Assembly: GCA_013374505.1 (NCBI GenBank)
Contig: QENJ01000001.1
Coordinates: forward strand, 1 to 36,224
DNA length: 36,224 bases
Direction: 5' to 3'
DNA from: Candidatus Methanophagaceae archaeon
Lineage (GTDB): Archaea > Halobacteriota > Syntropharchaeia > Alkanophagales > Methanospirareceae
Shown here: positions 6,460 through 36,224 of the stretch, in pieces
Numbering within the stretch: the first letter of the stretch is position 1
Layout: the number at the start of each line of letters is the position of its first letter
Program-made: the position numbers and the translations under genes
Notes under the pieces: model-generated
Database searches by the model: none
Told to the model about the DNA's origin: nothing
Seen by the model: only the letters and a program-made list of their open reading frames with translations

Positions 6460-6550
6460 TTCTCCTGCTAGCCTTTAGTCGGTTATATTTCAAACTCAGC
6501 CGTGTTTTTGATATAAACATTTAATTAAACGTTTTGTAAAGTTAAGAGTG

Positions 6551-19822: not shown

Positions 19823-20155
19823 AGTTTATACCGTTAAGAGTCAGGAGTATAAAAGGTTATCGTGTTCTCGAAGCGGTCCCACAATCACCAGACAACTTTG
19901 TCATTCTAACACCCACGCACAATTGGAGGTTTTCCATACCCAAAATGTAAAAGTGCAGCTCAAAAATAGTGGGATTGTGGGTAGCATGGAAAATAAGGGA
20001 GGAGTACCAGTCCAAACCAGGTAATCCCGCGTATTCAAGCAGGATGCTGCTAAGACGGGTGTTACAGGCATTTATTGATGCCGTTTGGTTCTCGAGAAAG
20101 ATATAAAAGCAACTCAGTTAGATGTTTTTTATCTGATAGGTTTTTGTTTATTATT

Positions 20156-23100
20156 ATGCCTGCCGACTTGTTCAATGTACGTACTGTTGAGAGGCTTTCG
20201 CGTAAAGTTAAAGTTTCTAATAAGCAGAAGAACGCAGCCAAGTTGTGGTTAATGAACCTTGATGCCGGTAAACTGACGGCCGAGCGCCATAATTATATAA
20301 AATTCGCCAATGTTGTTCTAAGGGACATTCTTGGTTATCCCGAAAGGGAGATTGAAGAATCGTTTGAAAAGGGTGGAGTTGAGTTTTTATTCACAAATGA
20401 GGAAGAACACAAAGTTGTTTGTTTTGAGTTGAAGGGAAGCGATCAGGATCTATTTTCCACACAACATAGAGTGAAGAAAGAGCAGGAGACTCCGATAAAA
20501 CAGACTTGGGATTACATGGGCAAGCACAACCTTGACTACGGAGTGACAAGCAATTTCAGGGAGTTCGTGCTGATAGACAAAAACAAAGGATATTCCAAGG
20601 TTCACAGATTCGACATCACTTCAATAAAATCCGAGCCCACAAAACTCAAGGAATTCATAGCAATATTCTCCAAGAAGAATCTCGTTGTAGATAAGTTTGC
20701 CGAGGTACTCTATAAAGAATCTATAATTGAGGAAAGAGCATTCACAAAAGAATTTTATAAGCTCTTTCATGAAACTCGCCTCATGCTATTAAAAGAATTC
20801 AGTGACCGTGGTGCTACACAGGAACAGGCGATTCATTATGCACAGATTTTTCTTAACCGATTAATGTTCGTTCTTTTCGCAGAAGATACGGGGAAGTTAC
20901 CAAGAAGACTTCCGGAAGAGATGATATTAGAAGTCCTCAAAAATAGACTCATAATAAATGAACAGTCGAATATGGTTTACGAAGCTATCATAGGACTCTA
21001 TCGTCAGCTTGATACGGGGGCTAAAACGCCAGTGGAACTATTTGGTTTCAATGGTGAACTATTCAAAGAGGAGATACCAAGAACATTTTTCTTCTATGAT
21101 ATGAGGGAAGAAAGCTATTTCAAAGACGTTTATCAGCAATCAGCGTTAAAGAAGAGTAAACAACAGGACAGTATTGAATTAAACATTTTATCAAGAGTTG
21201 GTAAGGGTATCTCACCCATAATATCCAATATCCTGCTGATGGCGTCCTTTGACTTTACGACTGAGGTAAATATCAATATTCTTGGTCACATATTCGAGCA
21301 GTCAATAACAGATATAGAAATGTTACAGGAAGGGGAAACCGCGAAACGGAAGAAGGAGGGAATCTACTACACTCCTGAGTATATAACCGACTACATCTGC
21401 CGTAACACTATCATACCGTACTTATCAAAAAATAACGTGGCAACGACAGTAGAAGAATTAATTAACGAACACAAAGATAATTTTGAGGTGTTAGAGAAGA
21501 AATTGAAAAACCTTAAGATACTTGATCCTGCCTGTGGAAGCGGTGCCTTCCTTATCAAGGCTGTTGACGTGCTATTGGAAATCCATAAAGCATTAATCGA
21601 AGCAAAAGCAGTGCAGGGTAAGTACGAGAAAAGAGTTTTGGGTAAAAGAGGGCAAGAAGAAAGATACCTTTCATTCAATAAATACTATGACGAAGACGAA
21701 GCCCGTAAAATAATAGAGGACAATATCTATGGTGTTGACATAAACGAGGAATCTGTTGAAATAACGAAACTAAGCCTTTATCTCAAGATAGCCAGGGAAA
21801 AGAAAAAACTGCTGGACTTATCGAAGAACATTAAATGCGGAAATAGTCTTATAGAGGACCCAGAAGTTGCAGGAAATAAAGCATTTAGTTGGGGAGAAAA
21901 TTTCCCTGAACTATTGAATACAGGTGGATTTGAAATCATAATTGGAAATCCGCCATACATACCTACGGAAACAATGTCTAATCAGGAAAAAAGCGAATAT
22001 CTAAAGAAATTCAATTGTCTTGAAAGAAAATACGATTCATCAATTGTCTTCATCCTAAACTCACTTAAATTACTAAAAGATACCGGATACTTGTCTTTTA
22101 TTTCCTCGGTAACTTGGCACACCGGCGAAAATTACATAAAATTTAGAAAATTTTTACTTGATCACTATGGCATTGAATACCTAATTAATCTTCCTTTTGA
22201 TGTGTTCGAAGATGCGTATGTCGATACGGGTATTTACGCTTTATCTACCAAGAAAAAACAGATAATAAAAGGTTACCAGTTTGACAAGAAGTTTAGAATA
22301 ACCAAAATAGATAAACTTGAATTCAACCAAATAAGATTAGAAGACATTAATCCGCCAGATTACAAAATTATCATCTCAAAAGGGGTCCAGTCAATTCATT
22401 CCAGGATACACAAAAAACCGATAACTGAACTTGGTGATATATCAATATCTGCTCAGGGACTCTCTGCTAGCAGATTCAAATTGTATAGCAAAAAAGAGGC
22501 ACAAACACTTCCGTTTCTGCACAAAGGGCAAGGATACCGGTATAACTTAATAAAAAATGTGATTTTGTATGCCGATGTGTCGAAACACCAGAATTTAGTC
22601 AAATTCTACAAAAAACAACCAAAAATATTCATTCGAAGAATAATTAGTAGACAGAATAGACTAATGTCCTGTTATGAAGAAGACGATCTCGTCACAAAAA
22701 AGGATTTGAATCCATTTATCATAAAGGATTCTTTATTCAACCCAAAGTTCATTTTGGCACTATTAAATAGTTCGTTGATCTCGTATCTTTATACTCAATC
22801 TTCAACAATCGCTTTGAAAGATGATTTCCGACAGACTACATTAGCTGAATTAAAAAAATTACCAATCATACAAGCCGATAGTAACACGCAAGCTATTTTA
22901 GCTTCAAAAGCAGATTCAATGCTTAAATTGAACAAAGAGTGCAATGAAAAGAAGAACAAGTTCCTTAGACGTATTTCTTCTTACTTTGGTATCGAAAAAT
23001 ATTCTAAGAAGTTAGATTCTTTCTGGATGTTCTCTTTTGATGTTTTTCAGAAAGAAGTTTATCGGCTGTCTAAGAAAAAAATGTCTTTGAAAGAGCAGGA

Positions 23101-23251
23101 TGAGTGGGAAGACTACTTCAATGATTACAAAGAAGAGTTAACTGAACTACAGCAAAAAAACGATGAAACCGATAAGGCGATAGACCAAATGGTGTATCAA
23201 CTCTATGAATTAACACCGGAGGAGATTAAGATAGTTGAAGAAGGTTTTTAG
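20156..23251 (+). CDS. type IIG/IIL single-chain restriction endonuclease-N6-adenine methyltransferase (MmeI/Eco57I-like)
   Basis: N-terminal PD-ExK-like block GGVEFLFTNEEEHKVVCFELKG...YGVTSNFREFVL. Gamma-class MTase motif I KILDPACGSGAFL and motif IV IIIGNPPYIP. Long C-terminal TRD-like region with a coiled-coil tail. The ATG at 20156 is preferred over the track's TTG at 20075. Confidence 0.8.
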   Translation: MPADLFNVRTVERLSRKVKVSNKQKNAAKLWLMNLDAGKLTAERHNYIKFANVVLRDILGYPEREIEESFEKGGVEFLFTNEEEHKVVCFELKGSDQDLFSTQHRVKKEQETPIKQTWDYMGKHNLDYGVTSNFREFVLIDKNKGYSKVHRFDITSIKSEPTKLKEFIAIFSKKNLVVDKFAEVLYKESIIEERAFTKEFYKLFHETRLMLLKEFSDRGATQEQAIHYAQIFLNRLMFVLFAEDTGKLPRRLPEEMILEVLKNRLIINEQSNMVYEAIIGLYRQLDTGAKTPVELFGFNGELFKEEIPRTFFFYDMREESYFKDVYQQSALKKSKQQDSIELNILSRVGKGISPIISNILLMASFDFTTEVNINILGHIFEQSITDIEMLQEGETAKRKKEGIYYTPEYITDYICRNTIIPYLSKNNVATTVEELINEHKDNFEVLEKKLKNLKILDPACGSGAFLIKAVDVLLEIHKALIEAKAVQGKYEKRVLGKRGQEERYLSFNKYYDEDEARKIIEDNIYGVDINEESVEITKLSLYLKIAREKKKLLDLSKNIKCGNSLIEDPEVAGNKAFSWGENFPELLNTGGFEIIIGNPPYIPTETMSNQEKSEYLKKFNCLERKYDSSIVFILNSLKLLKDTGYLSFISSVTWHTGENYIKFRKFLLDHYGIEYLINLPFDVFEDAYVDTGIYALSTKKKQIIKGYQFDKKFRITKIDKLEFNQIRLEDINPPDYKIIISKGVQSIHSRIHKKPITELGDISISAQGLSASRFKLYSKKEAQTLPFLHKGQGYRYNLIKNVILYADVSKHQNLVKFYKKQPKIFIRRIISRQNRLMSCYEEDDLVTKKDLNPFIIKDSLFNPKFILALLNSSLISYLYTQSSTIALKDDFRQTTLAELKKLPIIQADSNTQAILASKADSMLKLNKECNEKKNKFLRRISSYFGIEKYSKKLDSFWMFSFDVFQKEVYRLSKKKMSLKEQDEWEDYFNDYKEELTELQQKNDETDKAIDQMVYQLYELTPEEIKIVEEGF

Positions 23252-23310
23252 AAAGTATTTTAAATATCACAGTATTCTTAGTTTTAGTTACAGTGCCAAG
23301 GAAAAGAGCG

Positions 23311-24696
23311 ATGAAAGAAAAGGTAGAATTCTCTGCATTTTCCCCTACGGACTACCGCTATGCCGTGACTACACTAAGCGAGTTCTTATCAGAAGAAGCG
23401 TTTGTGCAGTATAAGGCCAAAGTAGAGGCTGCAATAGCCCGTGGCTTCGCGAACAAAGGCATCTTAAGTAACTACTTATGTGACGAGATATTAGAAGCAG
23501 CATCACAAGTGAATGCAGAAGCGGTCTATGACGAGGAGCAGCGCACGAAACACGACATCAGAGCGTTAGTAAATGTAATAAAGAGTAAAGTAAGCGAAGA
23601 AGCGAAACCATTCGTGCATCTCTGTGCTACTTCGTATGACGTGGTGGACACAGCAAATGCGCTCAGGTACAAAGACGCCGTGAACAAGGTTATTATACCA
23701 GATATGATCGCGTTGGAACGAGCCTGGATAGACCTGGCACGCCGAGAAAAAGACACGTTACAAATAGGTCGCACTCATGGTCAACATGCAGAACCCATCA
23801 CATTCGGATTCGCAGTTGCACAGTACGTGAACCGATGGGGTTCGCAGATATTAAAACTACGGGACACAAGCGATAACCTTCGTGGTCAGTTTTCGGGTGC
23901 TGTGGGTGCGTATAACGCAACGGCGTTGGTTTTTGACGACCCGGAGGAGTTTGAACGTGAGGTTTTGGCTATGCTTGGTCTGCAACCCGCGGCAATATCC
24001 ACGCAGATAGTACCACCGGAACCCATGTCCGATTTTATTCATTCGGTAATATGCAGTTTCTCGGTGTTAGCCAATTTCTGTGACGATATGCGGCATCTTC
24101 AACGGACTGAGATAAGCGAAGTGATGGAGCGAGTAACGGAAGGACAAGTAGGCTCGTCCACGATGCCGCACAAAAGGAACCCCATTGGTTTCGAGGGTGT
24201 TAAGAGCCTGTGGAAGAAATTCATGCCTCAAGTTGTCACTATGCACCTTGACCAGGTGTCGGAACATCAACGCGACCTGACGAATTCCGCGTCACAGAGA
24301 TACATCTCGGAGTTGCTCGTGGTTTTTGACTACTGCGTGACACGGCTGAAACGTATTTCCGAGCGGTTAGTCGTGGATCGAGCGAAGATGCGTGCGAATT
24401 TTGCCATTTCTGAGGATACTATCATCGCGGAGCCGTTATACATACTCCTGTCTTATTACGGGCATCCCGATGCGCATGAATACGTACGGAAGAAGACTCT
24501 TCAGGCTTATAACGAGCAGAAATCGTTGAAGGAACTAATCGAGGCCGAAAGCGATGAAGAGGTTCTGTCGTATATGAAGCGGTTCACGGAGGAGCAGAAA
24601 GCTAAGGCCTTTGATGCCGAGAAATATACCGGGATAGCAGCAGCGAAGGTGGATAAGGTTGCAGATTATTGGGAAGAGAAATTGGGATTGACTTGA
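23311..24696 (+). CDS. purB: adenylosuccinate lyase
   Basis: Fumarate-lyase signature GSSTMPHKRNP, plus TSYDVVDTA and GRTHGQHAEPITFG. The ATG at 23311 is preferred; the alternative is the GTG at 23293. Confidence 0.9.
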   Translation: MKEKVEFSAFSPTDYRYAVTTLSEFLSEEAFVQYKAKVEAAIARGFANKGILSNYLCDEILEAASQVNAEAVYDEEQRTKHDIRALVNVIKSKVSEEAKPFVHLCATSYDVVDTANALRYKDAVNKVIIPDMIALERAWIDLARREKDTLQIGRTHGQHAEPITFGFAVAQYVNRWGSQILKLRDTSDNLRGQFSGAVGAYNATALVFDDPEEFEREVLAMLGLQPAAISTQIVPPEPMSDFIHSVICSFSVLANFCDDMRHLQRTEISEVMERVTEGQVGSSTMPHKRNPIGFEGVKSLWKKFMPQVVTMHLDQVSEHQRDLTNSASQRYISELLVVFDYCVTRLKRISERLVVDRAKMRANFAISEDTIIAEPLYILLSYYGHPDAHEYVRKKTLQAYNEQKSLKELIEAESDEEVLSYMKRFTEEQKAKAFDAEKYTGIAAAKVDKVADYWEEKLGLT

Positions 24697-24803: not shown

Positions 24804-25880
24804 TCACTTATCCAACTCTTGAAGTATCTCATGGAACTTATCTTCACCAATTTCCTCTTTTATTACTGCTAAATTCTTTATTGTTAGTTCAAGGTAAGGA
24901 GACTCAAGCACTTTGAAAATTAACGCAGCATTGGCCAATGCCGATATGGCTTCGTGATATTTCTCTTGCCTATGCTTTATTTGTCCTATCTGTCCTAATG
25001 TTGAAGCAATACCTGACTTGTCGCCAATCTCTTCTTCGATTTTTAAGCTTTTTGTGTAGTTCTCTAATGCTTTTTCGTATTCCCCTTTATCTTGATGAAT
25101 CACACCAATCTCATGAAGTGTTTGAGCTATACCACGCTTTTCGCCAATCTCTTCTTCGATTTTTAAGCTTTTTGTGTAGTTCTCTAATGCTTTTTCATAT
25201 TCCCCTTTAACGGAATGAATCATTCCAATCTGATGCAGCGTTGCAGCAATACCTGACTTGTCGCCAATCTCTTCTTTGATTTTTAAGCTTTTTGTGTAGT
25301 TCTTCAATGCTTTTTCGTATTCCCCTTTATCTTGATGAATCATTCCAATCTGATGCAGCGCTGCAGCAATACCAGACTCGTCGCCAAACTCTTCTTCGAT
25401 TTTTAAGCTTTTTGTGTAGTTCTCTAATGCTTTTTCGTATTCCCCTTTAACTTGATGAATCATTCCAATCTGATGCAGCGTTACAGCAATACCTGACTTG
25501 TTGCCAATCTCTTCTTTGATTTTTAAGCTTTTTGTGTAGTTCTCTAATGCTTTTTCGTATTCCCCTTTAACGAAATTAATATTTCCAATATTATGCAGCG
25601 TTGCAGCAATATCTGACTTGTCGCCAATCTCTTCTTTGATTTTTAAGCTTTTTGTGTAGTTCTCTAATGCTTTTTCGTATTCCCCTTTAACGAAATTAAT
25701 ATTTCCAATACGATGTAGCGCGACTGCTTCATTTCTCCTATTCCCTTTTTCTCTGAAGTATTCATAGAATTCTTTCTGGATATTTAACGCATCATCAAGC
25801 CTACCCCATATTTCACAAACTCTTGCAATGTTTCCACGCTGTATGCTTAGACCTTTCCTCATCTCCAAGCTCCTTTGCAT
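24804..25880 (-). CDS. TPR-repeat array (probably the C-terminal sensor part of the upstream STAND NTPase)
   Basis: Eight 40-aa TPR units, six of them near-identical (GEYEKALENYTKSLKIKEEIGDKSGIAATLHQIGMIHQVK). The reading frame is open only from 25883, and the ORF overlaps the upstream ORF by 68 nt in the +1 frame. Confidence 0.8.
   Translation of the reverse strand: MQRSLEMRKGLSIQRGNIARVCEIWGRLDDALNIQKEFYEYFREKGNRRNEAVALHRIGNINFVKGEYEKALENYTKSLKIKEEIGDKSDIAATLHNIGNINFVKGEYEKALENYTKSLKIKEEIGNKSGIAVTLHQIGMIHQVKGEYEKALENYTKSLKIEEEFGDESGIAAALHQIGMIHQDKGEYEKALKNYTKSLKIKEEIGDKSGIAATLHQIGMIHSVKGEYEKALENYTKSLKIEEEIGEKRGIAQTLHEIGVIHQDKGEYEKALENYTKSLKIEEEIGDKSGIASTLGQIGQIKHRQEKYHEAISALANAALIFKVLESPYLELTIKNLAVIKEEIGEDKFHEILQELDK
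24966..25725. repeat. six tandem 120-bp coding repeats plus a partial seventh
   Basis: The motif tcgccaatctcttcttcgatttttaagctttttgtgtagttctctaatgctttttcgtattcccctt recurs at 25021, 25141, 25261, 25381, 25501 and 25621. Spacing is exactly 120 bp and only a few substitutions are present. Confidence 0.9.
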
Positions 25881-27279
25881 CTTCTATTGCCCTCAAATAA
25901 CATGTCTCTGCAGTATCTAACGAACCGGTATCAAAGGAAAAAATAGCAAGTGCAACATTGTGAGAATAAGACTGCTTGTGTAGTCCTGCATGGTGAAAAT
26001 GATATGCACATCCAAGACCTATCACAAAATCCACTTTTTCCCTTTTTTCTATCGCAATTTTATAACGCTCTTCAAAAAATATGGCGGCATATTCGTGATA
26101 AATCTTCCTGAGTTCGTCCCCCAAGTTCTCATCCCTTACATATTCCTGCATTAATTCATGCTTAAACCATCTTTCTTTATCTCCAGAAAATATCTGTGCT
26201 CGTATTAATCTTCTAATGTGGTTGTCGCACTCTTCTTTTGTAAACTCATCTTCTTTTACAAGTCTTGTGTATCCTTCAAGCGTTAAAGGCTGGAGCAGAA
26301 CCGAAAGCTTACGAGCAAATACTTGTGTATTATCCTCCACCTTATCCAGCCTCTTTTCATAAAAATTGAATAAACTCTTTTTCTTTCCTCCTTTTAACTC
26401 ATCCAAATTTAAATCCTCTGATTGTGAAATCCACTCGTTTAAAACAACAGGGAATCCACCTGATTCTCTTCTTATTTTCCTTAGTTCGGGTTTTAAAAAT
26501 TCCACACCCCTTTCTCTGCGAATCCATTCGCCAATTTCATCCTCTGAAAGCCCATTTAGTTCTGCGATTTTACAGCCCTCATATCCCAACTCGGATTCAA
26601 TCTCTTCATAATGCCTGGCTTCTGCACCTATTTTAAAAGAGGCAATCACATAGACACCTTTTGGCAATCCTCTAACAACACTCAAGAAAAGATCTATTGA
26701 ACTTTTTGTAGCACGCTCAAATTGGTCAATCATCAAAACAATCTTCTTGTTTGTCTTTTGCACCAGAGCACCTAACAAATCCAAATAGAAGTCTGTGAAT
26801 TCTTGTTTATGCTGTGCTATTGTTTCTTCCGCAAGTTCAATAGCCGAGACTGTTTTCGTTTCTTTCCATATCAGTCCTAAAAACTTTAAGGTCGCATCAA
26901 GTTTTAAATCCTTTGACACATCCTTTAACAACGCCTTGACAAATCCGCTTTTTCTTCTCTTTAATACCTCTTCTATGGCATCATCGATATGCTTAAAAGT
27001 AGTTGTTCCTTCTGATTTATCCCTCTCCTCTATTCTGGATAGTAAATCAGCCAAAACCTCCACAAATGGTGTATGTGTCGCTACCACTCCAGGCAATTTA
27101 TAAAACCCGATAATGACATCCTCCTTTGGCTTTACACGATTAGAAAGTTCTTTCATTAAAAGTGTTTTCCCTATTCCAATTTCACCGATAACAATGAAAA
27201 CGCCTTCTTCTTTAGCAGTCAAGAAATTATCAAAATCATTCAGTTCCTTTTCTCTTCCTACAAAGTTAATCGTTGGCAT
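25813..27279 (-). CDS. STAND/AAA-type P-loop NTPase (archaeal-ATPase PF01637-like), no N-terminal effector domain
   Basis: Walker A IGEIGIGKTLLMKEL lies about 30 aa from the N-terminus and Walker B is KKIVLMIDQFERA. A helical/TPR-like C-terminal part (CYLRAIEDAKELGDEE) continues the register of the downstream TPR ORF. Confidence 0.75.
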   Translation of the reverse strand: MPTINFVGREKELNDFDNFLTAKEEGVFIVIGEIGIGKTLLMKELSNRVKPKEDVIIGFYKLPGVVATHTPFVEVLADLLSRIEERDKSEGTTTFKHIDDAIEEVLKRRKSGFVKALLKDVSKDLKLDATLKFLGLIWKETKTVSAIELAEETIAQHKQEFTDFYLDLLGALVQKTNKKIVLMIDQFERATKSSIDLFLSVVRGLPKGVYVIASFKIGAEARHYEEIESELGYEGCKIAELNGLSEDEIGEWIRRERGVEFLKPELRKIRRESGGFPVVLNEWISQSEDLNLDELKGGKKKSLFNFYEKRLDKVEDNTQVFARKLSVLLQPLTLEGYTRLVKEDEFTKEECDNHIRRLIRAQIFSGDKERWFKHELMQEYVRDENLGDELRKIYHEYAAIFFEERYKIAIEKREKVDFVIGLGCAYHFHHAGLHKQSYSHNVALAIFSFDTGSLDTAETCYLRAIEDAKELGDEERSKHTAWKHCKSL

Positions 27280-27297
27280 TTTGTTTCTGGCTGTACA

Positions 27298-27882
27298 CTA
27301 TTCAGATTTTGTTGTTAGTATACATTGTCCTAGAAAATCTTTCGAGAGAATTATACCGCCATCAAAGCTATCAGCTAATCTTTTCGATACATTTTCTTGG
27401 AAATATGCTCCGACAATTCGCTTTCCTGTAAAATCCTTTATTGATTTTACCAAATCAACATAATCACCGTCCCCTCCTAAAAGAACAGCAATTTCGTAAT
27501 GATTTAAAAATGCTTTAGTTATCATATCGACTGCTAAAAGGACATCAACACCTTTTTGGCGATATCTACCATCTTTAGTTTTTATTAATCTTCCAAGTTT
27601 AACTTCATAATCATTGTTCTCTTGTATACGTTCAAAATAGCTATTCTGTTCGTCATATTTTGTATCTTTGTGATCCACGATAGCATCATAATAATAGACT
27701 CTAATTAATTCTGGTTGTATAGGCCCACCCATAGTGGACCAATCAAGGAGGAGAGGTAAAAATGCAAAATCTATATTATAATGACCGAAAACTTTCTTTA
27801 TTCCTTCTCTAAGATATCCACCATCTATGAATATCATTGATGGGCGATATGCTGGAGTTGAACCGGAACCAATTACCGCCAT
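27298..27882 (-). CDS. NYN/LabA-like (PIN-fold) predicted ribonuclease
   Basis: MIFIDGGYL, QKGVDVLLAVDMI and AVLLGGDGDYVDLV correspond to the conserved acidic motifs of NYN/LabA domains. The stop lies 18 nt upstream of the STAND start codon. Confidence 0.75.
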   Translation of the reverse strand: MAVIGSGSTPAYRPSMIFIDGGYLREGIKKVFGHYNIDFAFLPLLLDWSTMGGPIQPELIRVYYYDAIVDHKDTKYDEQNSYFERIQENNDYEVKLGRLIKTKDGRYRQKGVDVLLAVDMITKAFLNHYEIAVLLGGDGDYVDLVKSIKDFTGKRIVGAYFQENVSKRLADSFDGGIILSKDFLGQCILTTKSE

Positions 27883-27955
27883 TTTTATTTCCCTCTTTAT
27901 TCTATTTTATCTTTATAGTGTAAATACCTATAAGTTTGACTTTGTTAACTACAAT

Positions 27956-28072
27956 GTTAAAGAAGGGTAAACAACAAGACCTTGTTGAATCAAGCAGTTT
28001 ATCAAAAGTTGGTAAGGGCATCTCGCCCATAATATCCAATATCATGCTGATGGCGTCCTTTGACTATTCGAC
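27956..28072 (+). pseudogene. 117-bp orphan fragment homologous to an internal part of the type IIG R-M gene
   Basis: Aligns without gaps to 21145-21261 with about 14 mismatches. It encodes KKGKQQDLVESSSLSKVGKGISPIISNIMLMASFDYS versus KKSKQQDSIELNILSRVGKGISPIISNILLMASFDFT. No start codon and no flanking ORF. Confidence 0.75.
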
Positions 28073-28095
28073 AAAAATAAAAAGAATAAGATAGC

Positions 28096-28980
28096 TCATC
28101 GCACTATCTTCGCTATATCTATCTCAATAATATCTTCCGCACCCATGCTCTTCAGCTCAGGTATCAATATATTCACCTCGCGTTTGCTTACTACCGTTTC
28201 CACCGCGTAATACCGCTCGTTACTATCACCGTAAAGCTGAGAGATAGTCGGTTTCTTCATTGCCGGTAGTGTCGACACCAACTCCTTTAGCTTAGCCTCC
28301 GGAACATTCATGCTGAGTAATACCTTACCCCGCGCTTCTATAACGCCGGAAAGCAACGTCTTTATCTCTTCTATCTCGCGCCGTTTCTTTAGGTCGTCCC
28401 AGGAATCCTTATTTACTATTAACTTCGTGGATGATTCTTCTATCGTATCTATAATGCGCCAGTTGTTCTTCCTTAGTGTCTCACCAGTTTCCGTGAGCTC
28501 GACTATGCCGTCCATCATGTCCTTCGCTTCGGTAGCACCGTATGAGAAGAATATCTGCACAGGAATACCGAGTTTGTCGAAGAACGACTTTGTGAGTTTT
28601 GGATATTCCGTGCTTATCTTACTCTGCGGTTTTATATCTTTTGCCGTGTTTATTCCCGCTGCATCTGCTTGCACTGCGAGCACTATTTTTACCGTGCCTT
28701 CCTTCTCCAAAGTTTTGCTGTAGCTCAGGTCTGCTATTTCTACTACGTCAGCACCCCGTTCTTCTATCCAATCTTTACCCGTTATGCCAACGTCGAAATA
28801 GCCTTTCTCGACATATTCCGGTATTTCCTGCGGTCTCAATATCTTTACTTTCTCTATCCGCGGGTCTTCTATCCTCGGATTGTATTCGCGGCTCGTTACT
28901 TTTATCTCCAGGTCGGCCTGCTTGAACAACAGCAGTGTTTGCGCCTCTAAACTGCCTTTCGGTATCACTATGCTTATCAT
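28096..28980 (-). CDS. hisG: ATP phosphoribosyltransferase, long form
   Basis: MISIVIPKGSLEAQT..., DVGITGKDW and the C-terminal regulatory domain. The internal ATG at 28980 is preferred over the track start at 29058. Confidence 0.9.
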   Translation of the reverse strand: MISIVIPKGSLEAQTLLLFKQADLEIKVTSREYNPRIEDPRIEKVKILRPQEIPEYVEKGYFDVGITGKDWIEERGADVVEIADLSYSKTLEKEGTVKIVLAVQADAAGINTAKDIKPQSKISTEYPKLTKSFFDKLGIPVQIFFSYGATEAKDMMDGIVELTETGETLRKNNWRIIDTIEESSTKLIVNKDSWDDLKKRREIEEIKTLLSGVIEARGKVLLSMNVPEAKLKELVSTLPAMKKPTISQLYGDSNERYYAVETVVSKREVNILIPELKSMGAEDIIEIDIAKIVR

Positions 28981-29049
28981 GTTTATCTTTCCTTTTTTGT
29001 TATAAAAGAAGAACAACTTAAATAATGTGAGACGGTATAGCAAATCTCG

Positions 29050-29375
29050 ATGAACCATAAAAAGGGAAAAAATAAATTACAGGACACTGATTCACACAGA
29101 TTAACGCAGATGAAAATTTATAAATGGCGTGAGATAACCGAGAAGATAATTGGAGCAGCATACAAAGTGCATAACACACTTGGTTCTGGTTTTTTGGAAA
29201 TGGTATACCAAAATGCGCTTGTCATTGAGCTTCAAACGCTTGGGTTTCGCGTAGAGGTAAAAAGCCTATAACGGTCTATTATCATGATGAAGTCGTGGGT
29301 ATTTATGTTGCCGATATTATCGTTGATGGAAAAGTCCTTCTCGAAATAATGGATAAAAATAAATCAGTGTCTTAA
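29050..29375 (+). pseudogene. frameshifted and C-terminally truncated GxxExxY-family gene relic inside a 10-bp inverted-repeat pair
   Basis: ITEKIIGAAYKVHNTLGSGFLEMVYQNALVIELQTLGFRVEV, then a stop. After a frame change in an A5 run, homology continues as KKPITVYYHDEVVGIYVADIIVDGKVLLEI. GACACTGATT at 29083-29092 pairs with AATCAGTGTC at 29362-29371. Confidence 0.65.
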
Positions 29376-30277: not shown

Positions 30278-30589
30278 CTAAAGCCGACTGCCATGAGGTC
30301 CTCTATGGATTGCTTTGAATCTCAATGTCTTAAGGTCTTTTTCGGCATCCTTTGCAGTATAATCTATTGGAATACCTTTTTCATTCAGTATCATCAGCAT
30401 CTCCCACTTATTTCGTGCACCCGCGACTTCTGCCGCTTTGCCAAGTGATAATTTACCTTCTTTATATAGTTCTGCTGCTAATGGACGTCTGATGAACTCA
30501 TCGAGCTCATCTTCTTTTAGCTTTGTCGCAGTCAAAAAAGAACAGGGTAATTTGACCGTTGCTTCTAATGTTTCCATGCTCATCACCAA
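30278..30589 (-). CDS. UPF0175-family putative antitoxin, orphan (no DUF3368/PIN partner downstream)
   Basis: LAAELYKEGKLSLGKAAEVAGARNKWEMLMILNEKGIPIDY is the typical UPF0175 HTH-like core. Only 178 nt of non-coding DNA separate it from the rlmE 3' end. Confidence 0.6.
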   Translation of the reverse strand: MVMSMETLEATVKLPCSFLTATKLKEDELDEFIRRPLAAELYKEGKLSLGKAAEVAGARNKWEMLMILNEKGIPIDYTAKDAEKDLKTLRFKAIHRGPHGSRL

Positions 30590-30781
30590 TAGTTGATTAG
30601 GTTTTATAGGTTATTAAATCTTGCCTGCAAGGTATGTATGCGGGAAAAAAACGGAAGTTTTTACGATGGCTTTCACGATATGATTTTTTTGGTTGTATCA
30701 ACCCCTGCGAATTTCGGAGGAAGGGGGATATGAAAGAAGATTGTGATAAATAACCTTTCTTTAAACCTTTTAAGAAAAGGT

Positions 30782-31212
30782 TTATGTTGGAATTTTTTGA
30801 AACCCCATTCCAACTTGCGAGAAATGGTCATCTTCTGTAATAATATCGGTGATTCCTATCTCCGCCATGACTACCATTGTAGTCAAATCGGTAAAGGAGA
30901 TCCGCGGCTTGTCCTTAAACTTCATTCTCAATTCTTTTGCTTTCTCGAATCTTTCTGCAGTGATACGCTCTAAACGGAGGTAACCTTCTTTAATAGCAAG
31001 GTCTATTACCTCAAGCGAGTCTTTAGCTTCTGTGAAAGGCACCCGCCGGAAAAAAAGGGTAAAAGTTTCATCCAGAACATAATCTGTAGTGTAACTTACA
31101 CCTTTTTGGTCGTTCCACGACGAATAAAAGTTTGTAAGCACTATATGCCTTGGCTCACGCTTATTTCCCGGGACTATCCAACCCAACCCCAGGTGTCAAT
31201 GAAAAGTTTCAA
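30782..31212 (-). pseudogene. vapC: PIN-domain VapC toxin disrupted near its 5' end by a 5-bp tandem duplication
   Basis: A TTG overlapping the antitoxin stop opens MKLFIDTWGWVG*. The rest (GWIVPGNKREPRH...TTDYVLDETFTLF...FTDLTTMVVMAEIGITDIITEDDHF) is in another frame. Removing one GGTTG copy (31179-31188) restores a single frame. Confidence 0.55.
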
Positions 31213-31463
31213 TCTTCCTCACCGTAGAGTATTTCGTCAATCTTGTGGGCAAAGGGTTCAACTGATACCCCCCCTATGTATTTCAGTATGGGGTCTTTTT
31301 TGGGGTCTAATTCTAATTCTTCCGCCTGTTCTTCTCGCTTCTCTCTTGCCAAAAGATAGCCCACGAAATCAAATACTTCTACGAGTTTATCTTCTGAAAG
31401 ACGCTCTAAAGCTTCTTTGACTACCTCTTCTAATACCTGCCTTTTATGCAAAGCATTTTTCAT
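31209..31463 (-). CDS. putative antitoxin of the adjacent VapC (DUF2281-like)
   Basis: 84 aa and acidic, immediately upstream of and overlapping the PIN gene. LVEVFDFVGYLLAREK resembles DUF2281-type antitoxins. Confidence 0.5.
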   Translation of the reverse strand: MKNALHKRQVLEEVVKEALERLSEDKLVEVFDFVGYLLAREKREEQAEELELDPKKDPILKYIGGVSVEPFAHKIDEILYGEED

Positions 31464-31611
31464 CTATCTTCTCATCTCCACCAAATAGGTGTTTAGCGTT
31501 TTCTCCTTATTTGTCGTTGTCACTATCTAAACAGAGTGTTTTAGCACTTTATAAAAAGCATAAAACGTTATATTTATTAGAACAATTAATAATATACACA
31601 AGGGTGTAAAA

Positions 31612-31839
31612 ATGAGTGCCAGGACCTTATCTTTATCGGAAGAGGTATATGCAAGGTTGGACGCAGAAAGAGAAGAAGGGGAAAGTTTCAACGATGTCAT
31701 CACGCGGTTAACCGATAAGAAAAAGCTGACGAATATAGTTGGATTCTTAAAAGAAGAGGGTGCTGAAGAGATGTGGCAAGTTATCGAGGCGATGCGAGAA
31801 AAGAGCAGAGGTCGAACGTTGAGGTTAACAGAAGGATGA
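31612..31839 (+). CDS. vapB: VapB-type antitoxin (archaeal DUF217-like family)
   Basis: LSLSEEVYARLDAEREEGESFNDVITRL is the conserved N-terminal ribbon-helix motif of this family. ATGA overlap with the next ORF. Confidence 0.6.
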   Translation: MSARTLSLSEEVYARLDAEREEGESFNDVITRLTDKKKLTNIVGFLKEEGAEEMWQVIEAMREKSRGRTLRLTEG

Positions 31840-31955
31840 TAGACCCAGAAGATGCTATGATTGCCGGGATTGCTTTGATTAATGATGAATCTGTTCTCAC
31901 TAGAAATGTTGAACATTTCTCTCGCATACGTGACCTGAAAATCGAGACATATTGA
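31836..31955 (+). pseudogene. VapC (PIN) relic: start codon fused to the last 35 or so residues by internal deletion
   Basis: MIDPEDAMIAGIALINDESVLTRNVEHFSRIRDLKIETY keeps only the C-terminal PIN motif (D..IAa.A......lvTrN...F). The N-terminal catalytic Asp/Glu region is absent. Confidence 0.55.
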
Positions 31956-31958
31956 ACT

Positions 31959-32192
31959 ATGCGAAAGCTAAAAATCGAAACTATGCCGAATTTGGAATCG
32001 CGTCCAGGAGAGGAGTGGATAGAAGTGCCCGAAGGACTGCATGCTAAGTTTGTTTACCGTGTAGACCGGGAGATTTCTCTTGCCCAAGTTCGGCAGGAGT
32101 TATCTTCAATTGAAGGTAATCTCTTGGAGATAATTTCCAAGCAACGTGAAGAGCGAGGATGCGTTTTCTCATCTCATCGGGCTCTTCTCTAA
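31959..32192 (+). pseudogene. deletion derivative of the 32784-33499 TA module (antitoxin 3' half fused out of frame to an internal PIN segment)
   Basis: 32063-32160 is homologous to 32937-33034. 32157-32192 is homologous to 33211-33248. About 181 bp are missing between two GGGATG repeats of the intact copy. Confidence 0.6.
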
Positions 32193-32279
32193 TGATGAAA
32201 GGGTTAAATTCAAATAAATCAAAATTTGATATCATCTGGAACTTGAATAAACCGTAAAAAAGGAGGAAGGAATAGAAAA

Positions 32280-32504
32280 ATGGGAAGCGAAACGATAACT
32301 CTGACAGAAGAAGCGTATAATCTATTGATACAACAAAAAGGAGATAACGAAAGCTTTGCTGATGTAATAATCAGGCTATCAAAACGAGGTAAATTAAAGG
32401 ATTGTTTTGGTGCTTGGGATATGGATGACGATGAGGAAAAAGCGATGTTTGCAAATTTGAGAAAGTTCTGGGAAAAAAGCGAACTGCGTGGGGTAAAGCT
32501 GTGA
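32280..32504 (+). CDS. vapB: VapB-type antitoxin (same family as 31612)
   Basis: ITLTEEAYNLLIQQKGDNESFADVIIRL. GTGA overlap with a PIN N-terminal fragment. Confidence 0.6.
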   Translation: MGSETITLTEEAYNLLIQQKGDNESFADVIIRLSKRGKLKDCFGAWDMDDDEEKAMFANLRKFWEKSELRGVKL

Positions 32505-32623
32505 AGTGTTTAGATACAGACTTCCTTGTGGCTATTTTAAGAGGGAAAAACGCTGCAAAATCAAAGATGGAATCGTTAGATGCTGAGGGGCATAATGCAA
32601 CCACTACGATAAATGCATCATAA
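32501..32623 (+). pseudogene. VapC (PIN) N-terminal fragment, truncated after 40 aa
   Basis: Hand-translated VKCLDTDFLVAILRGKNAAKSKMESLDAEGHNATTTINAS*. The LDTDFLV motif with the first catalytic Asp is present and the rest of the domain is missing. Confidence 0.55.
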
Positions 32624-32783
32624 AAGAATAACGGGATTGCAGATAGAAAACAGGTATTTTTAAAAAATCCTGCCTTTTTTTTATCGGATGTTTTGGTCTA
32701 ACGTGATTGTGAAACAGTCTCTCTGATCGTTGCATGGTACTCGATTATAGTATATTTAAGGTGACTAAAAATATAGAAGTAAT

Positions 32784-33035
32784 ATGGTATCAAGTGGAAC
32801 AGTGGCTGAGGGAGAAATAGTATCTAGGATAAAAAGTTTAGGGAAAATAGAGATAAGAGAAGTGCTGGATTTTATTGATTCTATTCAAGAAAAGAAGGAG
32901 GCGGAGCCATTCATTTGCTACATAAAAGAGAAGGCGGACCGGGAGATTACTCTTGCCCAGGTTCGGCAGGAGTTATCTTCAATTAAAGGTAATCTCTCGG
33001 AGACAATTTCAAAGCAACGTGAAGAGTGGGGATGA
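32784..33035 (+). CDS. putative antitoxin of the intact VapC
   Basis: 83 aa. Its stop overlaps the vapC ATG (ATGA at 33032-33035). Confidence 0.5.
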   Translation: MVSSGTVAEGEIVSRIKSLGKIEIREVLDFIDSIQEKKEAEPFICYIKEKADREITLAQVRQELSSIKGNLSETISKQREEWG

Positions 33036-33499
33036 AGACTTATTTTTTAGATACCAGCGCTTTGGTCAAACGGTATCATCAGGAAGTAGGAACCGAAGTT
33101 ATTGATAAAATATTTGGAGAAGAGGATAAAGAGCTATTCATTTCCGACCTTAGCATTATCGAATTCCATTCAGCTATTGCTCTGAAAGTTAGGACGAGAG
33201 AAATTTCCCGGGATGCGTTTTCACATCTCATCGGGCTCTTCTCTAATGAACTCGATGTCGGGTTATATCGGGTAATGCGGATAGATGAAGCAGAAAAGCA
33301 AGAAGCAGTGGAATTATTGACTAAATATGGATTGGGTTACGCTCTCAGAACGTTGGATAGCTTGCAACTTGCAGCTATGGAATCCGTAGGTAAAGCGAAT
33401 GTGGACTGGGTTGTCTGCGCGGATGCACGATTTTGCGAGGTTATTCGATTGCAAGGCTTTCAAGTTATCAACCCTGAAGAAAGCGTAAGAAATGTGTAA
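33032..33499 (+). CDS. vapC: PIN-domain toxin VapC (apparently intact)
   Basis: MKTYFLDTSALVKRY...SDLSIIEFHSA...LRTLDSLQLAAM...VCADARF covers all four acidic PIN positions. Confidence 0.8.
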   Translation: MKTYFLDTSALVKRYHQEVGTEVIDKIFGEEDKELFISDLSIIEFHSAIALKVRTREISRDAFSHLIGLFSNELDVGLYRVMRIDEAEKQEAVELLTKYGLGYALRTLDSLQLAAMESVGKANVDWVVCADARFCEVIRLQGFQVINPEESVRNV

Positions 33500-33876
33500 G
33501 ATACCTGTATTTAAGGGCATTGATGAAGCAGCAGAATTCGGGGATACTCACGATACAGTACGTAAACGAATTTGGATCGTTTCCGCGACCTGCGAAATCC
33601 GTGTGAATGTTTGCATGTCGTTCAGCATATGTGCGACCGCTACAAAAAATTAGAAACATGTTAAATTAAATTTACAATAATTGTAAGTAGCTATCACACC
33701 AGGTTTTGAAATAACGTTTGTAATGCGTAAAACACGAATCAAACGTTTATAAAAACTTTATTTGTTAGAAAATCAGATAAAAACCGAAAAGCATTTATAG
33801 TGATAACATCTAAACTATCTTTTGTTAGAAGCTAAAGGACGTATGGCGGCATACACGGTAGCAGATAGCACGTGTA

Positions 33877-33903
33877 AAACCTTTCTTTAAAAAAGAAAGG
33901 TTT
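33877..33903. other. perfect 12-bp-stem palindrome AAACCTTTCTTT-aaa-AAAGAAAGGTTT
   Basis: Read directly from the sequence. A related hairpin AAACCTTTT-aag-AAAAGGTTT sits at 30763-30783, preceded by AACCTTTCTTTA. Confidence 0.6.
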
Positions 33904-34090
33904 AGCGTTACCAACGAAATATGCAGTGAAAGATGAAGAACACAAAACGAGACAAATGAAATGTTTTCCGGTAATATACAAGGGGGGTTGTTAGCACGTT
34001 AAAAAAGAGGAAGGTTTTTATAGCGGGTTTGTAACAATTATCTTGTGTGGGTCTAGGGTATGAAAAAATAAGGAGAAGGGGTAAAAGAAG

Positions 34091-36224
34091 ATGGCGACGA
34101 AGATAGAGAAGGTGTTGAGTTGTATTTGCGTAGTCATGATTTTGGTGAGTGTGGTGCCTGTTTCGGTATTTGCGGTGAATAGTGGCACAACAAACGTAAG
34201 TGGTAAATATAATTCTTTTCAGGATTCTAATGAAAAAGTCTCTTCAATGCAAGAAGGGCAAGAGGTCAAGTTCATTGGAACAGCAATTGAATATCATGAA
34301 GGATCCGTCATGCCGGGTGATTTGCCACGGTGGAAAGTAAGCGTGGATGAAATTATCAGTGGGCCTTCTGAACTAAAAGGACACACTGTTTTTGTCGCCA
34401 TCGGTACTGCTACTATAGAACCGGGATATATGGACCCAAACATCAAATCAGGGGATATAGTGAAAGTTTATGGTATATATCGAGAGGTAGATAATGTGTG
34501 GCTAGAAGGTTCTAATTATTATCTCAAGAAAGTATCTTCAGAATGTCTTTCTATAACTGTCTGGACAGACAAGCCCGAATACAAAATCGGCGAGACCGTT
34601 ACGATATACTACCAAACTAATACGGCATGCACGGCAAAACTAACAGTAACAAAACCGGATGGTACGCAAGTTGTGGTTGGGGGACCAAATGATATACCGG
34701 TTTGCACACGATCCAAATCAGCAGCCGCGGGTTATCCAACCGGGACTAGAACTGTTACATTCGAGGCGTGGACAAGTGATGAATCTAAAAAAGCAACTTG
34801 TTATTTTGATGTTGTTGAAGATGAAGAAGAAACGAAACCCGTTCCTAAAATTACTAAGGTCGACATAGACCCATCAACATGCGTCAATGAAGATGAATAT
34901 GCAACAATATCTGTAACCGTGGCGAATAATGGTGGAGCATCAAGCGAAGGCTATATTTCTGTGTCGTTCCCGAATGATGAATACGTATATGTTGTAAGCG
35001 GAACAGGAAACGAGGATAATAAGGTATATCAAAAGGATGATGACCTCATATGGAATAGTGCGGGCGTGCAGATGAAGGCAGTGGACCCTCTTGTTGAACT
35101 TTATGATTCCGATTGGGACGGCGGGCAGCAAGAATTTATCACAATGAACGTCAAACCCAATAGTGGTTCTGACGAGATAGTATTCTATGTGCGAGCGGCA
35201 TTGAAGAACGATGCAGATGGCGATTACGAACGCGATCCGACTTATTCGGGTAATACGGACCAGCAGGGCTGGTATGCTAAGAAATATTCGGTTGATGTAT
35301 GTGACTATGAAAAGGTAAAAATCAGAGGTGAAATCATTGCTGATCAGCCATTTATTTCTTACTATAATTATGATGTCAAAATTGATGAAGTTCTTGAAGA
35401 TCCAACAGGCAACTTACAGGAAGGAGAAACGGTAAATGTTTATGGGCATCTCGATGGCCCTGCTCAGGTTGATGATGTTACTGTAGGGGATGAAGTAGAA
35501 GTTTATGGTGAGTATCGTGGATATGGTGGTGAATATAAACAGATATTCTTGAGCGAGTGGGGTGATAGTAGTTCTGATCATTATGTGAAGAAAATAGAAC
35601 CTTCTTTCGAATTGATTTCTCCAGATCTCACTTCTGAATTGGAACTGTATAAAACTCATAATATACATATTAGAGTTAAAAGTAGTACTACGAAAGGTGG
35701 TACAATAGTTGCTAGCCTAATGTTCACATCTAAATTTGAAAAATCTCAACGAGAGGTAATTATAAATTTAAAAGACGATGATTTTGATGGTATTTATGAA
35801 TATGACTACAGTCTCGAACCTTTTGAACAGATGGCAATGGACTCCGTTAAAAACTCAGTTAAAACAAAAGATGCAGAAGCCTTATATAATAGTATTTGTG
35901 ATTATTTTTCCTCTACAATTGGAACATATAATCTAACACTAAAATATTATGATGAAAGTTCTGAAAAAGCTGAATATTTGGATACACAATCTCTCTCAAT
36001 ATGTTCTCCTTATCTCCGTGGTTATAATTGGAAGTGGGAAATCGAGAAAGTTATTAACGATGATACGTTCCAGCCCCCATCTGAGCGAATGTGGGGCGGT
36101 CACTGGACAACATTAGAGGACGTACAAGAAAGTATGACTGAAACTGTCTTATATCTTTCAGAGGATAATGAAGGTACTGCTTATCTTGATCTATCATTGA
36201 AAGGGGATCCCACGGGAGTTATAG
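34091..36224 (+). CDS. large secreted/cell-surface protein, 3' end beyond the window (at least 711 aa)
   Basis: Not in the ORF track because it has no stop in the window. I translated the whole frame by hand without meeting a stop. GGAGAAGGGG lies upstream. Signal-peptide-like N-terminus MATKIEKVLSCICVVMILVSVVPVSVFAVNS. Beta-rich Ig/CARDB-like segments (ATISVTVANNGGASSEGYISVSF) and two homologous OB-like modules. Confidence 0.7.
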   Translation, partial: MATKIEKVLSCICVVMILVSVVPVSVFAVNSGTTNVSGKYNSFQDSNEKVSSMQEGQEVKFIGTAIEYHEGSVMPGDLPRWKVSVDEIISGPSELKGHTVFVAIGTATIEPGYMDPNIKSGDIVKVYGIYREVDNVWLEGSNYYLKKVSSECLSITVWTDKPEYKIGETVTIYYQTNTACTAKLTVTKPDGTQVVVGGPNDIPVCTRSKSAAAGYPTGTRTVTFEAWTSDESKKATCYFDVVEDEEETKPVPKITKVDIDPSTCVNEDEYATISVTVANNGGASSEGYISVSFPNDEYVYVVSGTGNEDNKVYQKDDDLIWNSAGVQMKAVDPLVELYDSDWDGGQQEFITMNVKPNSGSDEIVFYVRAALKNDADGDYERDPTYSGNTDQQGWYAKKYSVDVCDYEKVKIRGEIIADQPFISYYNYDVKIDEVLEDPTGNLQEGETVNVYGHLDGPAQVDDVTVGDEVEVYGEYRGYGGEYKQIFLSEWGDSSSDHYVKKIEPSFELISPDLTSELELYKTHNIHIRVKSSTTKGGTIVASLMFTSKFEKSQREVIINLKDDDFDGIYEYDYSLEPFEQMAMDSVKNSVKTKDAEALYNSICDYFSSTIGTYNLTLKYYDESSEKAEYLDTQSLSICSPYLRGYNWKWEIEKVINDDTFQPPSERMWGGHWTTLEDVQESMTETVLYLSEDNEGTAYLDLSLKGDPTGVI

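Follow-up and report, generated by a model that had tools for sequence, protein, structure and literature searches.

An NYN gene and a frameshifted STAND-TPR gene side by side at a variable locus of an ANME-1 archaeon

Gene content of the block

The DNA considered here is a stretch of 36,224 nucleotides (nt) of Candidatus Methanophagaceae archaeon (assembly GCA_013374505.1, the whole of contig QENJ01000001.1, positions 1 to 36,224), called the window below. It contains a minus-strand block (24804-27882) encoding an NYN protein, a P-loop ATPase and an array of TPR units. A preliminary description had presented this block as a candidate NLR-like immune module of three genes, with the NYN protein as effector. 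Its three minus-strand open reading frames (ORFs) were found as described, at 27298-27882 (194 aa), 25813-27279 (488 aa) and 24804-25880 (358 aa), with an 18-nt gap and then a 68-nt overlap. The ATPase and TPR ORFs proved to be parts of one gene, however, so that the block holds two genes, of which the second is frameshifted, and the NYN protein is probably not its dedicated effector. The closest homologues of the window proteins came from 'Candidatus Methanophagaceae archaeon ANME-1 ERB6' and from Methanophagales metagenome-assembled genomes. The features of the block are listed below; loci of relatives are designated by L numbers and individual homologous proteins by P numbers.

27883-27946, minus strand: region 5' of the NYN gene, kept among relatives in each flanking context (DNA homology), presumed to be its promoter or 5' region
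27298-27882, minus strand: intact gene of a putative NYN/LabA-like PIN-fold nuclease, 194 aa (Pfam, AlphaFold2, Foldseek, synteny)
27280-27297, minus strand: NYN-NTPase spacer, 18 nt, too short for a separate promoter (lineage comparison)
24804-27279, minus strand: single STAND NTPase-TPR gene, frameshifted, 824 aa after removal of one base (homologue and DNA alignment)
25813-27279, minus strand: nucleotide-binding and oligomerisation (NOD) part as read, 488 aa, final ~15 residues out of frame (Pfam, Foldseek, alignments)
25852-25860, minus strand: frameshift site GAGGAAAGG, one extra A at 25854-25856 (DNA alignment with L001 and L002)
24804-25851, minus strand: TPR sensor part of the same gene (Pfam; continuous with the NOD in homologues)
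25000-25720, minus strand: six tandem 120-nt (40-aa) TPR units (Tandem Repeats Finder, TRF)

Upstream of the NYN gene, DNA homology to L001, L057, L009, L069 and L088 ended at window positions 27926-27946. The block was AT-richer than its surroundings, as noted earlier (GC 0.34-0.39 versus 0.44-0.49 in purB and hisG). An Rfam scan of the whole window detected no RNA family. In a sigma-70 promoter and terminator scan, promoter-like sites were rarer than in shuffled sequence and terminator-like ones about equally frequent; its model is not archaeal and the result was disregarded. ORFs on the opposite strand of the block (e.g. 26795-27103 and 27113-27463) were taken as shadow ORFs of the minus-strand genes.

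A frameshift in the STAND-TPR gene

Close homologues of the 488-aa ORF were all fused NTPase-TPR proteins of 744-784 aa, and the homology of this ORF ended about 15 residues short of its stop codon. Across the junction the homologues displayed an uninterrupted ...AIEDAKELGDEEG(I/R)AIQRGNLARV..., where the window displayed ...AIEDAKELGDEE in one frame and GLSIQRGNIARV in the next. DNA alignment disclosed a 1-nt insertion, the window reading GAGGAAAGG and L001 and L002 reading GAGGAAGG. Deletion of one A (25854-25856) yielded a single ORF of 824 aa, which aligned over residues 1-824 with the 744-784-aa homologues and was as long as the intact orthologue in L085. Since the close homologues are fused and removal of a single A restores the ORF, the block consists of two genes, the second with a 1-nt insertion. 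The 68-nt overlap, previously taken for the junction of two genes, thus marks this insertion within a single NTPase-TPR gene; the 358-aa third ORF starts at an internal ATG (25880).

Besides the extra A, no further lesion was found in the STAND-TPR gene. Because the extra base is the sole lesion, the gene is either a very recent pseudogene or the victim of a sequencing error. As sequenced, we consider that it would yield the NOD without its sensor, that the TPR protein would probably not be made, and that the gene would be non-functional unless the extra base is an error. A sequencing or assembly artefact, with an intact 824-aa gene in the organism, is possible though on balance doubtful. It would fit the full-length ORF of L085 length, otherwise undamaged, that appears on removal of a single A, the position of the extra base in a short A run, and the intact state of the gene in L001-L005, L069, L082 and L085 (relatives fetched as DNA) and in every close full-length homologue. 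The run comprises three A's only, however, which is atypical for a homopolymer error. A minor variant of this explanation, in which programmed +1 frameshifting decodes the shift, was rejected as highly improbable, since the extra base was absent from all homologues and the site (GAA-AGG-U) is not a known slippery sequence.

The STAND ATPase

The 488-aa ORF matched Pfam families AAA_16 (E 1.3e-13, 52.2 bits, cut-off 32.6) and ATPase_2 (E 1.8e-9, 38.2 bits, cut-off 33.2) and was also assigned KAP_NTPase; sub-threshold matches were NACHT, NB-ARC, nSTAND1 and nSTAND6. No Orc/Cdc6 family occurred among its Pfam and NCBIfam matches. Both Walker motifs recognized earlier, GEIGIGKT (Walker A, residues 32-39) and LMIDQFE (Walker B), were confirmed and invariant across the family. 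In Walker B (D185-Q186-F-E188) the residue following the aspartate is Q instead of D or E. A GLPL-like G275-x-P277 and an MHD-like W371-F372-x-H374 were invariant in 19 sequences. These GxP and His motifs lay in helices at the expected positions of the structural model, whose confidence was moderate (predicted local distance difference test, pLDDT, 64.9) and in which the helical stretch 84-149 between Walker A and Walker B was poorly predicted.

Foldseek searches with the NOD model placed MalT (8bob_C, 5e-7, TMq 0.46) and PH0952 (6mfv_A, 2.5e-6, 0.45) on top. Matches to Orc/Cdc6 were weaker (1.7e-4 or worse, 0.26-0.32), and RdrA, Dark and plant NLRs also ranked below MalT and PH0952. This ranking, the invariant motifs and the MalT-type TPR array argue for a STAND protein and against Orc/Cdc6; together with the lack of an Orc/Cdc6 profile match, they agree with the class initially proposed. 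The model thus supports a STAND-like ATPase of NOD (NBD-HD-WHD) architecture. Comparison of the NOD profile with PDB chains by sequence retrieved only the P-loop region of Clp/Hsp104 and ABCE1 and was uninformative for class.

A first genome scan with a whole-NOD alignment was swamped by the P-loop pattern, giving mostly unrelated bacterial AAA_16 proteins, and was redone with the C-terminal half of the NOD. An exhaustive profile search retrieved 77 clusters (50% identity) with E <= 1e-30. Named members of the family were Bathyarchaeota, and genome scans outside ANME-1 likewise found Bathyarchaeota only; the family thus ranged over ANME-1, Bathyarchaeota and unnamed metagenomic sequences. In 29 of the 32 full-length representatives the NOD began at residue 2-12, and a fusion to NYN was found in none of the 32. 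The window NOD began at residue 6, the protein ended about 50 residues past its last TPR-like unit, and Pfam detected no output or effector domain at either end, where STAND proteins usually, though not universally, have at least one. The earlier remark that the ATPase leaves no room for an N-terminal effector was therefore borne out, and absence of a fused effector is, judging from these sequences, the norm in the STAND-TPR family.

One family member, P0199 (E 2.6e-43), displayed a NOD-TPR-TIR-Mrr_cat order with C-terminal TIR and Mrr domains. It is encoded at L094 574-3792, a metagenome of the same sample series (TANS21-1) as L082. The more distant P0272 was organized as Trypsin-NOD-TPR, and still more distant relatives were BTAD- or GerE-type (LuxR) regulators. 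The PADLOC search that had been recommended gave only weak matches for the ATPase, the best being PDC-S20 (2e-4) and HEC-02A (3e-4), and no Avs model matched at E <= 0.01.

The TPR array

The TPR part matched TPR_12 (3.5e-71) and TPR_MalT (2e-15) in Pfam. The array of 40-aa units reported previously was recovered by TRF (period 120 nt, six copies, 89% matches, 25000-25720). Units were on average 80% identical to one another; 15 of their 40 positions varied, most strongly in the last dozen residues (...IA.TLH.IG.I...), which we read as TPR helix A. Orthologue lengths of 744, 784 and 824 aa differed by steps of one 40-aa unit, the number of units differing among strains. Repeats that are highly conserved among themselves and polymorphic in number have been described for fungal NLR sensors (PMC4986451).

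Comparison of the window with L085 gave 92.4% identity for the NOD and 80.8% for the TPR region. The NOD displayed 36 non-synonymous and 21 synonymous codon differences, the TPR region 67 and 19, respectively; these are crude counts to which relaxation of the broken copy may contribute.

The NYN protein

The 194-aa ORF matched Pfam NYN (PF01936, E 6.6e-15, 56.3 bits, cut-off 24.2) and its AlphaFold2 model was of high confidence (pLDDT 89.8). Top Foldseek matches were VPA0982 (2qip, 2e-11) and the NYN domain of MARF1 (2e-5). In an alignment of 30 NYN sequences, D20, D66, D113, D138 and D140 were invariant and D119 nearly so; the window displayed GDGD where most relatives displayed GDDD, as did 2qip. 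The acidic motifs were therefore retained, as stated in the preliminary description, within a confidently predicted PIN-like fold. The catalytic site looks intact, and RNase activity is inferred by analogy with MARF1 and other characterised members. In PADLOC the protein matched candidate HEC-09 (E 1e-13, profile positions 42-184 of 203), a domain-level match only. It is a bare 194-aa domain with no adaptor or extra domain. Identity matrices indicated that it diverges at about the rate of purB, as expected of a core gene.

The NYN gene of L059/L099 (8001-8454, Methanophagales CSMAG_2415) was a mosaic relative to that of the window. Its residues 1-148 were 61% identical and included an internal gap, while residues 149-194 and the start of the ATPase were 90-96% identical, which hints at recombination inside NYN.

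Gene order at the DUF131-purB locus of ANME-1

Two flanking genes of the window are needed for the comparison of gene orders:

23293-24696, plus strand: purB (adenylosuccinate lyase), convergent with the STAND-TPR gene (Pfam Lyase_1, ASL_C)
28096-29058, minus strand: hisG, flanking NYN in the window only (in relatives: DUF131, NifU or an insertion sequence (IS) fragment)

The purB gene marks a conserved locus, with synteny in L009, L057, L069, L082 and L088. NYN alone was present in L009 and L088 (DUF131-NYN-purB) and in L057 (NYN-purB). L069 displayed both genes (DUF131-NYN-STAND-TPR-purB), and L082 displayed the STAND-TPR gene without NYN (DUF131-STAND-TPR-purB). The window, L001 and L085 carried rearranged versions of the locus. 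In L082, the 5' end, 94% identical to L009, encodes the DUF131 C-terminus, and about 70 nt of non-coding DNA with a TATA-like AAATTTAGATAATA precede the ATPase start.

According to purB identity, L069, L088 and L057 form one group (86-91%) and L082 goes with L009 (89%), so that even within closely related lineages either gene may be present or missing. Between L069 and L088 the difference was a clean indel of 2.38 kb that extends from the stop codon of NYN to that of purB. The empty spacer shared by L088, L057 and L009 had first suggested that the NYN-purB junction is ancestral and that the STAND-TPR gene simply inserted there, which was dropped as sole reading because the identity matrices show presence/absence inside the purB lineages. 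The pattern rather suggests an old polymorphism, repeated loss or recombination between lineages, all equally possible. The NOD was 82% identical between the window and L069, and purB 76%. Judged by gene order and similarity, the NYN gene of the window is the orthologue of the stand-alone gene conserved beside DUF131 and purB in ANME-1.

The pair lay on the same strand in the window, L001/2/4/5, L084, L085-87, L069 and L059, with a spacer of 16-20 nt throughout, and the two genes are likely co-transcribed. Four flanking contexts could be distinguished: hisG plus RM relic on one side and purB on the other (window), DUF131 and purB (L069), NifU and a restriction-modification (RM) gene (L001, L084), and IS fragment plus relic and a peptidase gene (L085).

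Pairing outside ANME-1

None of the nine intact STAND-TPR loci of Bathyarchaeota displayed an NYN match in up to 8 kb of flank; their neighbours included ribosomal-protein, eIF2-gamma, NrdD, aminopeptidase and DNA polymerase genes. NYN homologues were matched in at least 266 species genomes (archaea and Dehalococcoidia), from which 80 loci were fetched. No such ATPase occurred within 5 kb in 79 of them, and the exception (L099) was the same contig as L059 from ANME-1. The gene downstream of NYN was convergent in eight of the ten archaeal loci inspected, the other two ending at a contig edge. No recurring NYN partner emerged in other archaea (one AbiEii, one glutamate-synthase-like, the rest unannotated). 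The conserved NYN-NTPase-TPR synteny that had been proposed as a test was thus not encountered across independent lineages, the two genes being uncoupled in L009, L057, L088, L089, L082, the nine Bathyarchaeota loci and the 79 NYN loci. As synteny fails outside a part of ANME-1, a dedicated NYN effector module is not indicated.

Bathyarchaeota BA2 (L081 3845-5561, LIHK01000006.1) displayed a particular arrangement: ATPase residues 1-44, an intact same-strand NYN gene of 173 aa, ATPase residues ~118-374, no TPR and then RFC genes. The ATPase was interrupted right after the Walker A codons, and the NYN protein encoded there was 30% identical to that of the window.

Restriction-modification genes and other neighbours

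Two further features of the window concern RM genes:

20075-23251, plus strand: intact MmeI-like type IIG RM gene (Pfam Eco57I, N6_Mtase, MmeI_Mtase, MmeI_hel, TaqI_C)
27957-28079, plus strand: relic of an MmeI-type RM gene, residues 358-398, 123 nt (tblastn, blastn)

Both the nearby type IIG enzyme and the relic of a second one in the NYN upstream region had been pointed out before and were confirmed, the DNA of the relic sharing 92% identity with the L001 RM gene. An RM orthologue directly adjoined the pair in L001 and L003. Compared with these (L001 3741-6962, L003 2494-5637), residues 1-715 of the window RM protein were 85% identical. BLAST reported no match for the C-terminal specificity (TaqI_C) region, DNA homology stopping at window position 21954, which suggests a swap of target-recognition domains between strains. 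In the L001/L003 lineage, purB and a DUF7847 gene were missing between the STAND-TPR and RM genes. A Na+/alanine symporter gene was intact in the window (17176-18585, 469 aa) and represented by fragments of only 46-71 aa in L001 (7216-7580) and L003 (6118-6473).

The junction between relic and NYN upstream region recurred in L085. There (6444-6929), as in L086 (269-754), a fragment of an ISL3-family transposase gene abutted a longer (211-nt) RM relic directly 5' of NYN, which suggests that an IS-mediated rearrangement moved the NYN/STAND-TPR pair. In L089 (2257-5583), from another ANME-1 lineage, NYN occurred without STAND-TPR, and a different Eco57I-type RM gene lay two genes further downstream; RM genes are thus attracted repeatedly to the surroundings of NYN.

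A toxin-antitoxin-like cluster occupied window positions 30278-33499, with UPF0175 (30278-30589), DUF2281 (31209-31463) and PIN (33026-33499) genes and a 134-aa ORF (30782-31186) without Pfam match. ORFs 31959-32192 and 32784-33035 were related, sharing the motif ...LAQVRQELSSI.GNL.E.ISKQREE, while ORFs 31612-31839 and 32280-32504 had similar N-termini (T.(S/T)L(S/T)EE.Y) and may be antitoxins. The last ~2.7 kb (33500-36224) contained no ORF longer than 84 aa and displayed GC/AT skews like those of plus-strand coding sequence. Non-coding DNA or the remains of a heavily decayed gene may lie there; searches of this region (33.5-36.2 kb) for CRISPR-like or other repeat families and for Rfam matches gave nothing.

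RM and toxin-antitoxin genes are reported to be among the structural variants differentiating ANME-1 genomes (PMC13385816). The accessory role earlier attributed to the block agrees, as regards the STAND-TPR gene, with its presence/absence polymorphism and with the RM gene, relic, IS fragment and toxin-antitoxin genes nearby.

Interpretation

The overall best explanation, which we hold to be somewhat better than an even proposition, is a stand-alone NYN gene next to an accessory, effector-less STAND-TPR sensor gene, the NYN protein probably not being a dedicated effector. The sensor protein would consist of a MalT/PH0952-like NOD, an arm and a hypervariable TPR part. NYN is then best explained as an ordinary, vertically inherited, stand-alone RNase gene of LabA/MARF1 type, and its pairing with STAND-TPR looks like an operon fusion or a gene order retained at a variable locus. 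Homogenised, copy-variable TPR units and the TIR and Mrr domains of P0199 make an NLR-like role plausible; that the family serves as conflict or immune sensor has a likelihood little short of even. Of the immune module originally proposed, the STAND-like, effector-less, accessory and plausibly NLR-like character was upheld and the dedicated NYN effector was not. By analogy with characterised STAND proteins, binding of a ligand to the TPR face would release autoinhibition, ADP would be exchanged for ATP and the NOD would multimerise into a platform. Since nothing is fused to the NOD, the protein would have to produce an output by recruiting a separate partner in trans or by sequestering the ligand it has bound.

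Several observations weigh against this explanation. The pair persists in four flanking contexts with its 16-20-nt spacer, and the ATPase gene, where paired, seems no longer to have an upstream region of its own, both of which fit functional coupling; the former is weak evidence, as an 18-nt spacer is an improbable site for a breakpoint. In genomes like that of L082, of which only contigs were seen, an NYN gene located elsewhere could supply the protein in trans, and the two proteins may be linked functionally in a facultative way. The different NYN gene inside a decayed ATPase copy of Bathyarchaeota BA2 is a second juxtaposition of the two, but one that takes the form of a disruption. Confidence in the NOD model was only moderate (pLDDT 65, TM-score ~0.45). 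Finally, the housekeeping surroundings of the Bathyarchaeota homologues and the distant BTAD/LuxR relatives leave room for a non-immune signalling role.

A closer coupling was central to the preliminary description, in which the STAND-TPR protein, on sensing an invader, multimerises and thereby switches on, in trans, the NYN RNase transcribed with it. This is unlikely, even if the conserved same-strand spacing in four contexts, the intact NYN catalytic residues, the HEC-09 match (1e-13), the RM genes or relics adjoining the pair, an ATPase devoid of fused effector and the second NYN/ATPase juxtaposition in BA2 all accord with it, as does the occurrence of NYN nucleases in some CRISPR type III-B loci (bioRxiv 10.1101/270033). 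Pair-bearing loci all belong to ANME-1 and may share a single origin. At this very locus NYN occurs without the ATPase (L009, L057, L088) and the ATPase without NYN (L082); nine intact Bathyarchaeota homologues lack NYN and 79 of the 80 NYN loci of other species lack the ATPase. Adaptor or additional domains are absent from both proteins, NYN diverges about as purB in the manner of a core gene, and in the window the sensor gene is broken and NYN intact. HEC-09 itself gave no defence against the phages tested (bioRxiv 10.1101/2024.01.29.577857). A broader version is quite improbable: that ANME-1 has wired an effector-less STAND-TPR sensor by operon fusion to a resident NYN RNase as a two-polypeptide immune module, the family being archaeal NLR-like receptors without fused effector under an old presence/absence polymorphism at a housekeeping locus, like that of plant R genes.

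At the other extreme, both genes might be ordinary and unrelated to defence, NYN acting in RNA processing or turnover and STAND-TPR as a signalling or scaffolding switch comparable to the regulators MalT, AfsR and PH0952 but working through protein-protein contacts, with RM adjacency a coincidence in a rearrangement-prone region. We regard this as rather unlikely. It is consistent with the housekeeping neighbours in Bathyarchaeota, with closest solved folds that are transcription regulators (PMC6468293), with BTAD or GerE output domains on distant relatives, with a NOD better conserved than purB between the window and L069 (82% against 76%) and with the lack of any PADLOC match of the ATPase better than E 2e-4. 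It accounts poorly for presence/absence polymorphism within closely related lineages, for homogenised copy-variable TPR units with fast non-synonymous change, which would be unusual in a housekeeping regulator, for the TIR and Mrr domains of P0199, and for RM genes, relic and IS fragment as repeated neighbours in ANME-1; moreover, STAND-TPR has no DNA-binding or other output domain.

If the STAND-TPR family is an immune sensor, as the preferred explanation allows, it would be an archaeal NLR-like receptor without built-in effector, raising the question of how output arises. The four locus states of ANME-1 (NYN only, both, sensor only, rearranged) would then offer a ready comparative test. Practical value is modest, given a disrupted copy, a weak link to NYN and the fact that STAND ATPases with TPR sensors are already well known and form a large class. 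The gain lies in a corrected gene model and in the definition of a small uncharacterised effector-less family within that class.

Comparison with known systems

The NYN protein shares fold and acidic active-site residues with HEC-09, the NYN domain of MARF1, LabA and VPA0982 (2qip). HEC-09 has an extra N-terminal HTH-like region, is embedded in Hma systems and protected against none of the phages tested (bioRxiv 10.1101/2024.01.29.577857). In contrast, the window NYN is a bare domain, and its orthologues are flanked by DUF131 and purB and are not part of a defence system.

AVAST type 1 and the Aravind-type ternary systems are multi-gene STAND conflict systems with separately encoded effectors. 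Their components are joined by shared effector-associated adaptor domains or by strictly conserved operons. They resemble the window pair, as first conceived, in having sensor and effector as separate polypeptides of one operon; the pair differs in lacking an adaptor domain and in an operon that is not conserved outside a part of ANME-1. With Avs/AVAST proteins, the STAND-TPR protein shares the STAND core, the C-terminal repeat sensor, the accessory distribution and the proximity of RM genes. In contrast to them, with their fused nuclease, protease, SIR2 or TIR effectors, it has no fused effector and matches no Avs model in PADLOC at E <= 0.01. The TIR and Mrr_cat domains of P0199 belong to effector types that Avs-like proteins typically carry.

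MalT (E. coli) and PH0952 (Pyrococcus horikoshii) display the same NOD-arm-TPR order as the window protein and probably the same mode of action, inducer-controlled ADP/ATP exchange and multimerisation. Their DNA-binding domains, of LuxR type at the C-terminus of MalT and ArsR-like at the N-terminus of PH0952 (PMC6468293), have no counterpart in the window protein, which displays no output domain at either end. It further differs from both in a low-confidence helical insert of ~90 residues between Walker A and Walker B, in its D-Q-F-E Walker B and in its internally homogenised TPR units. Fungal and bacterial NLR-like proteins with internally highly conserved TPR, ANK or WD repeats (PMC4986451) normally possess N-terminal effector or signalling domains, in contrast to the window protein; it resembles them in its ~80% identical units, their polymorphic number and the concentration of variation at 15 of 40 positions.

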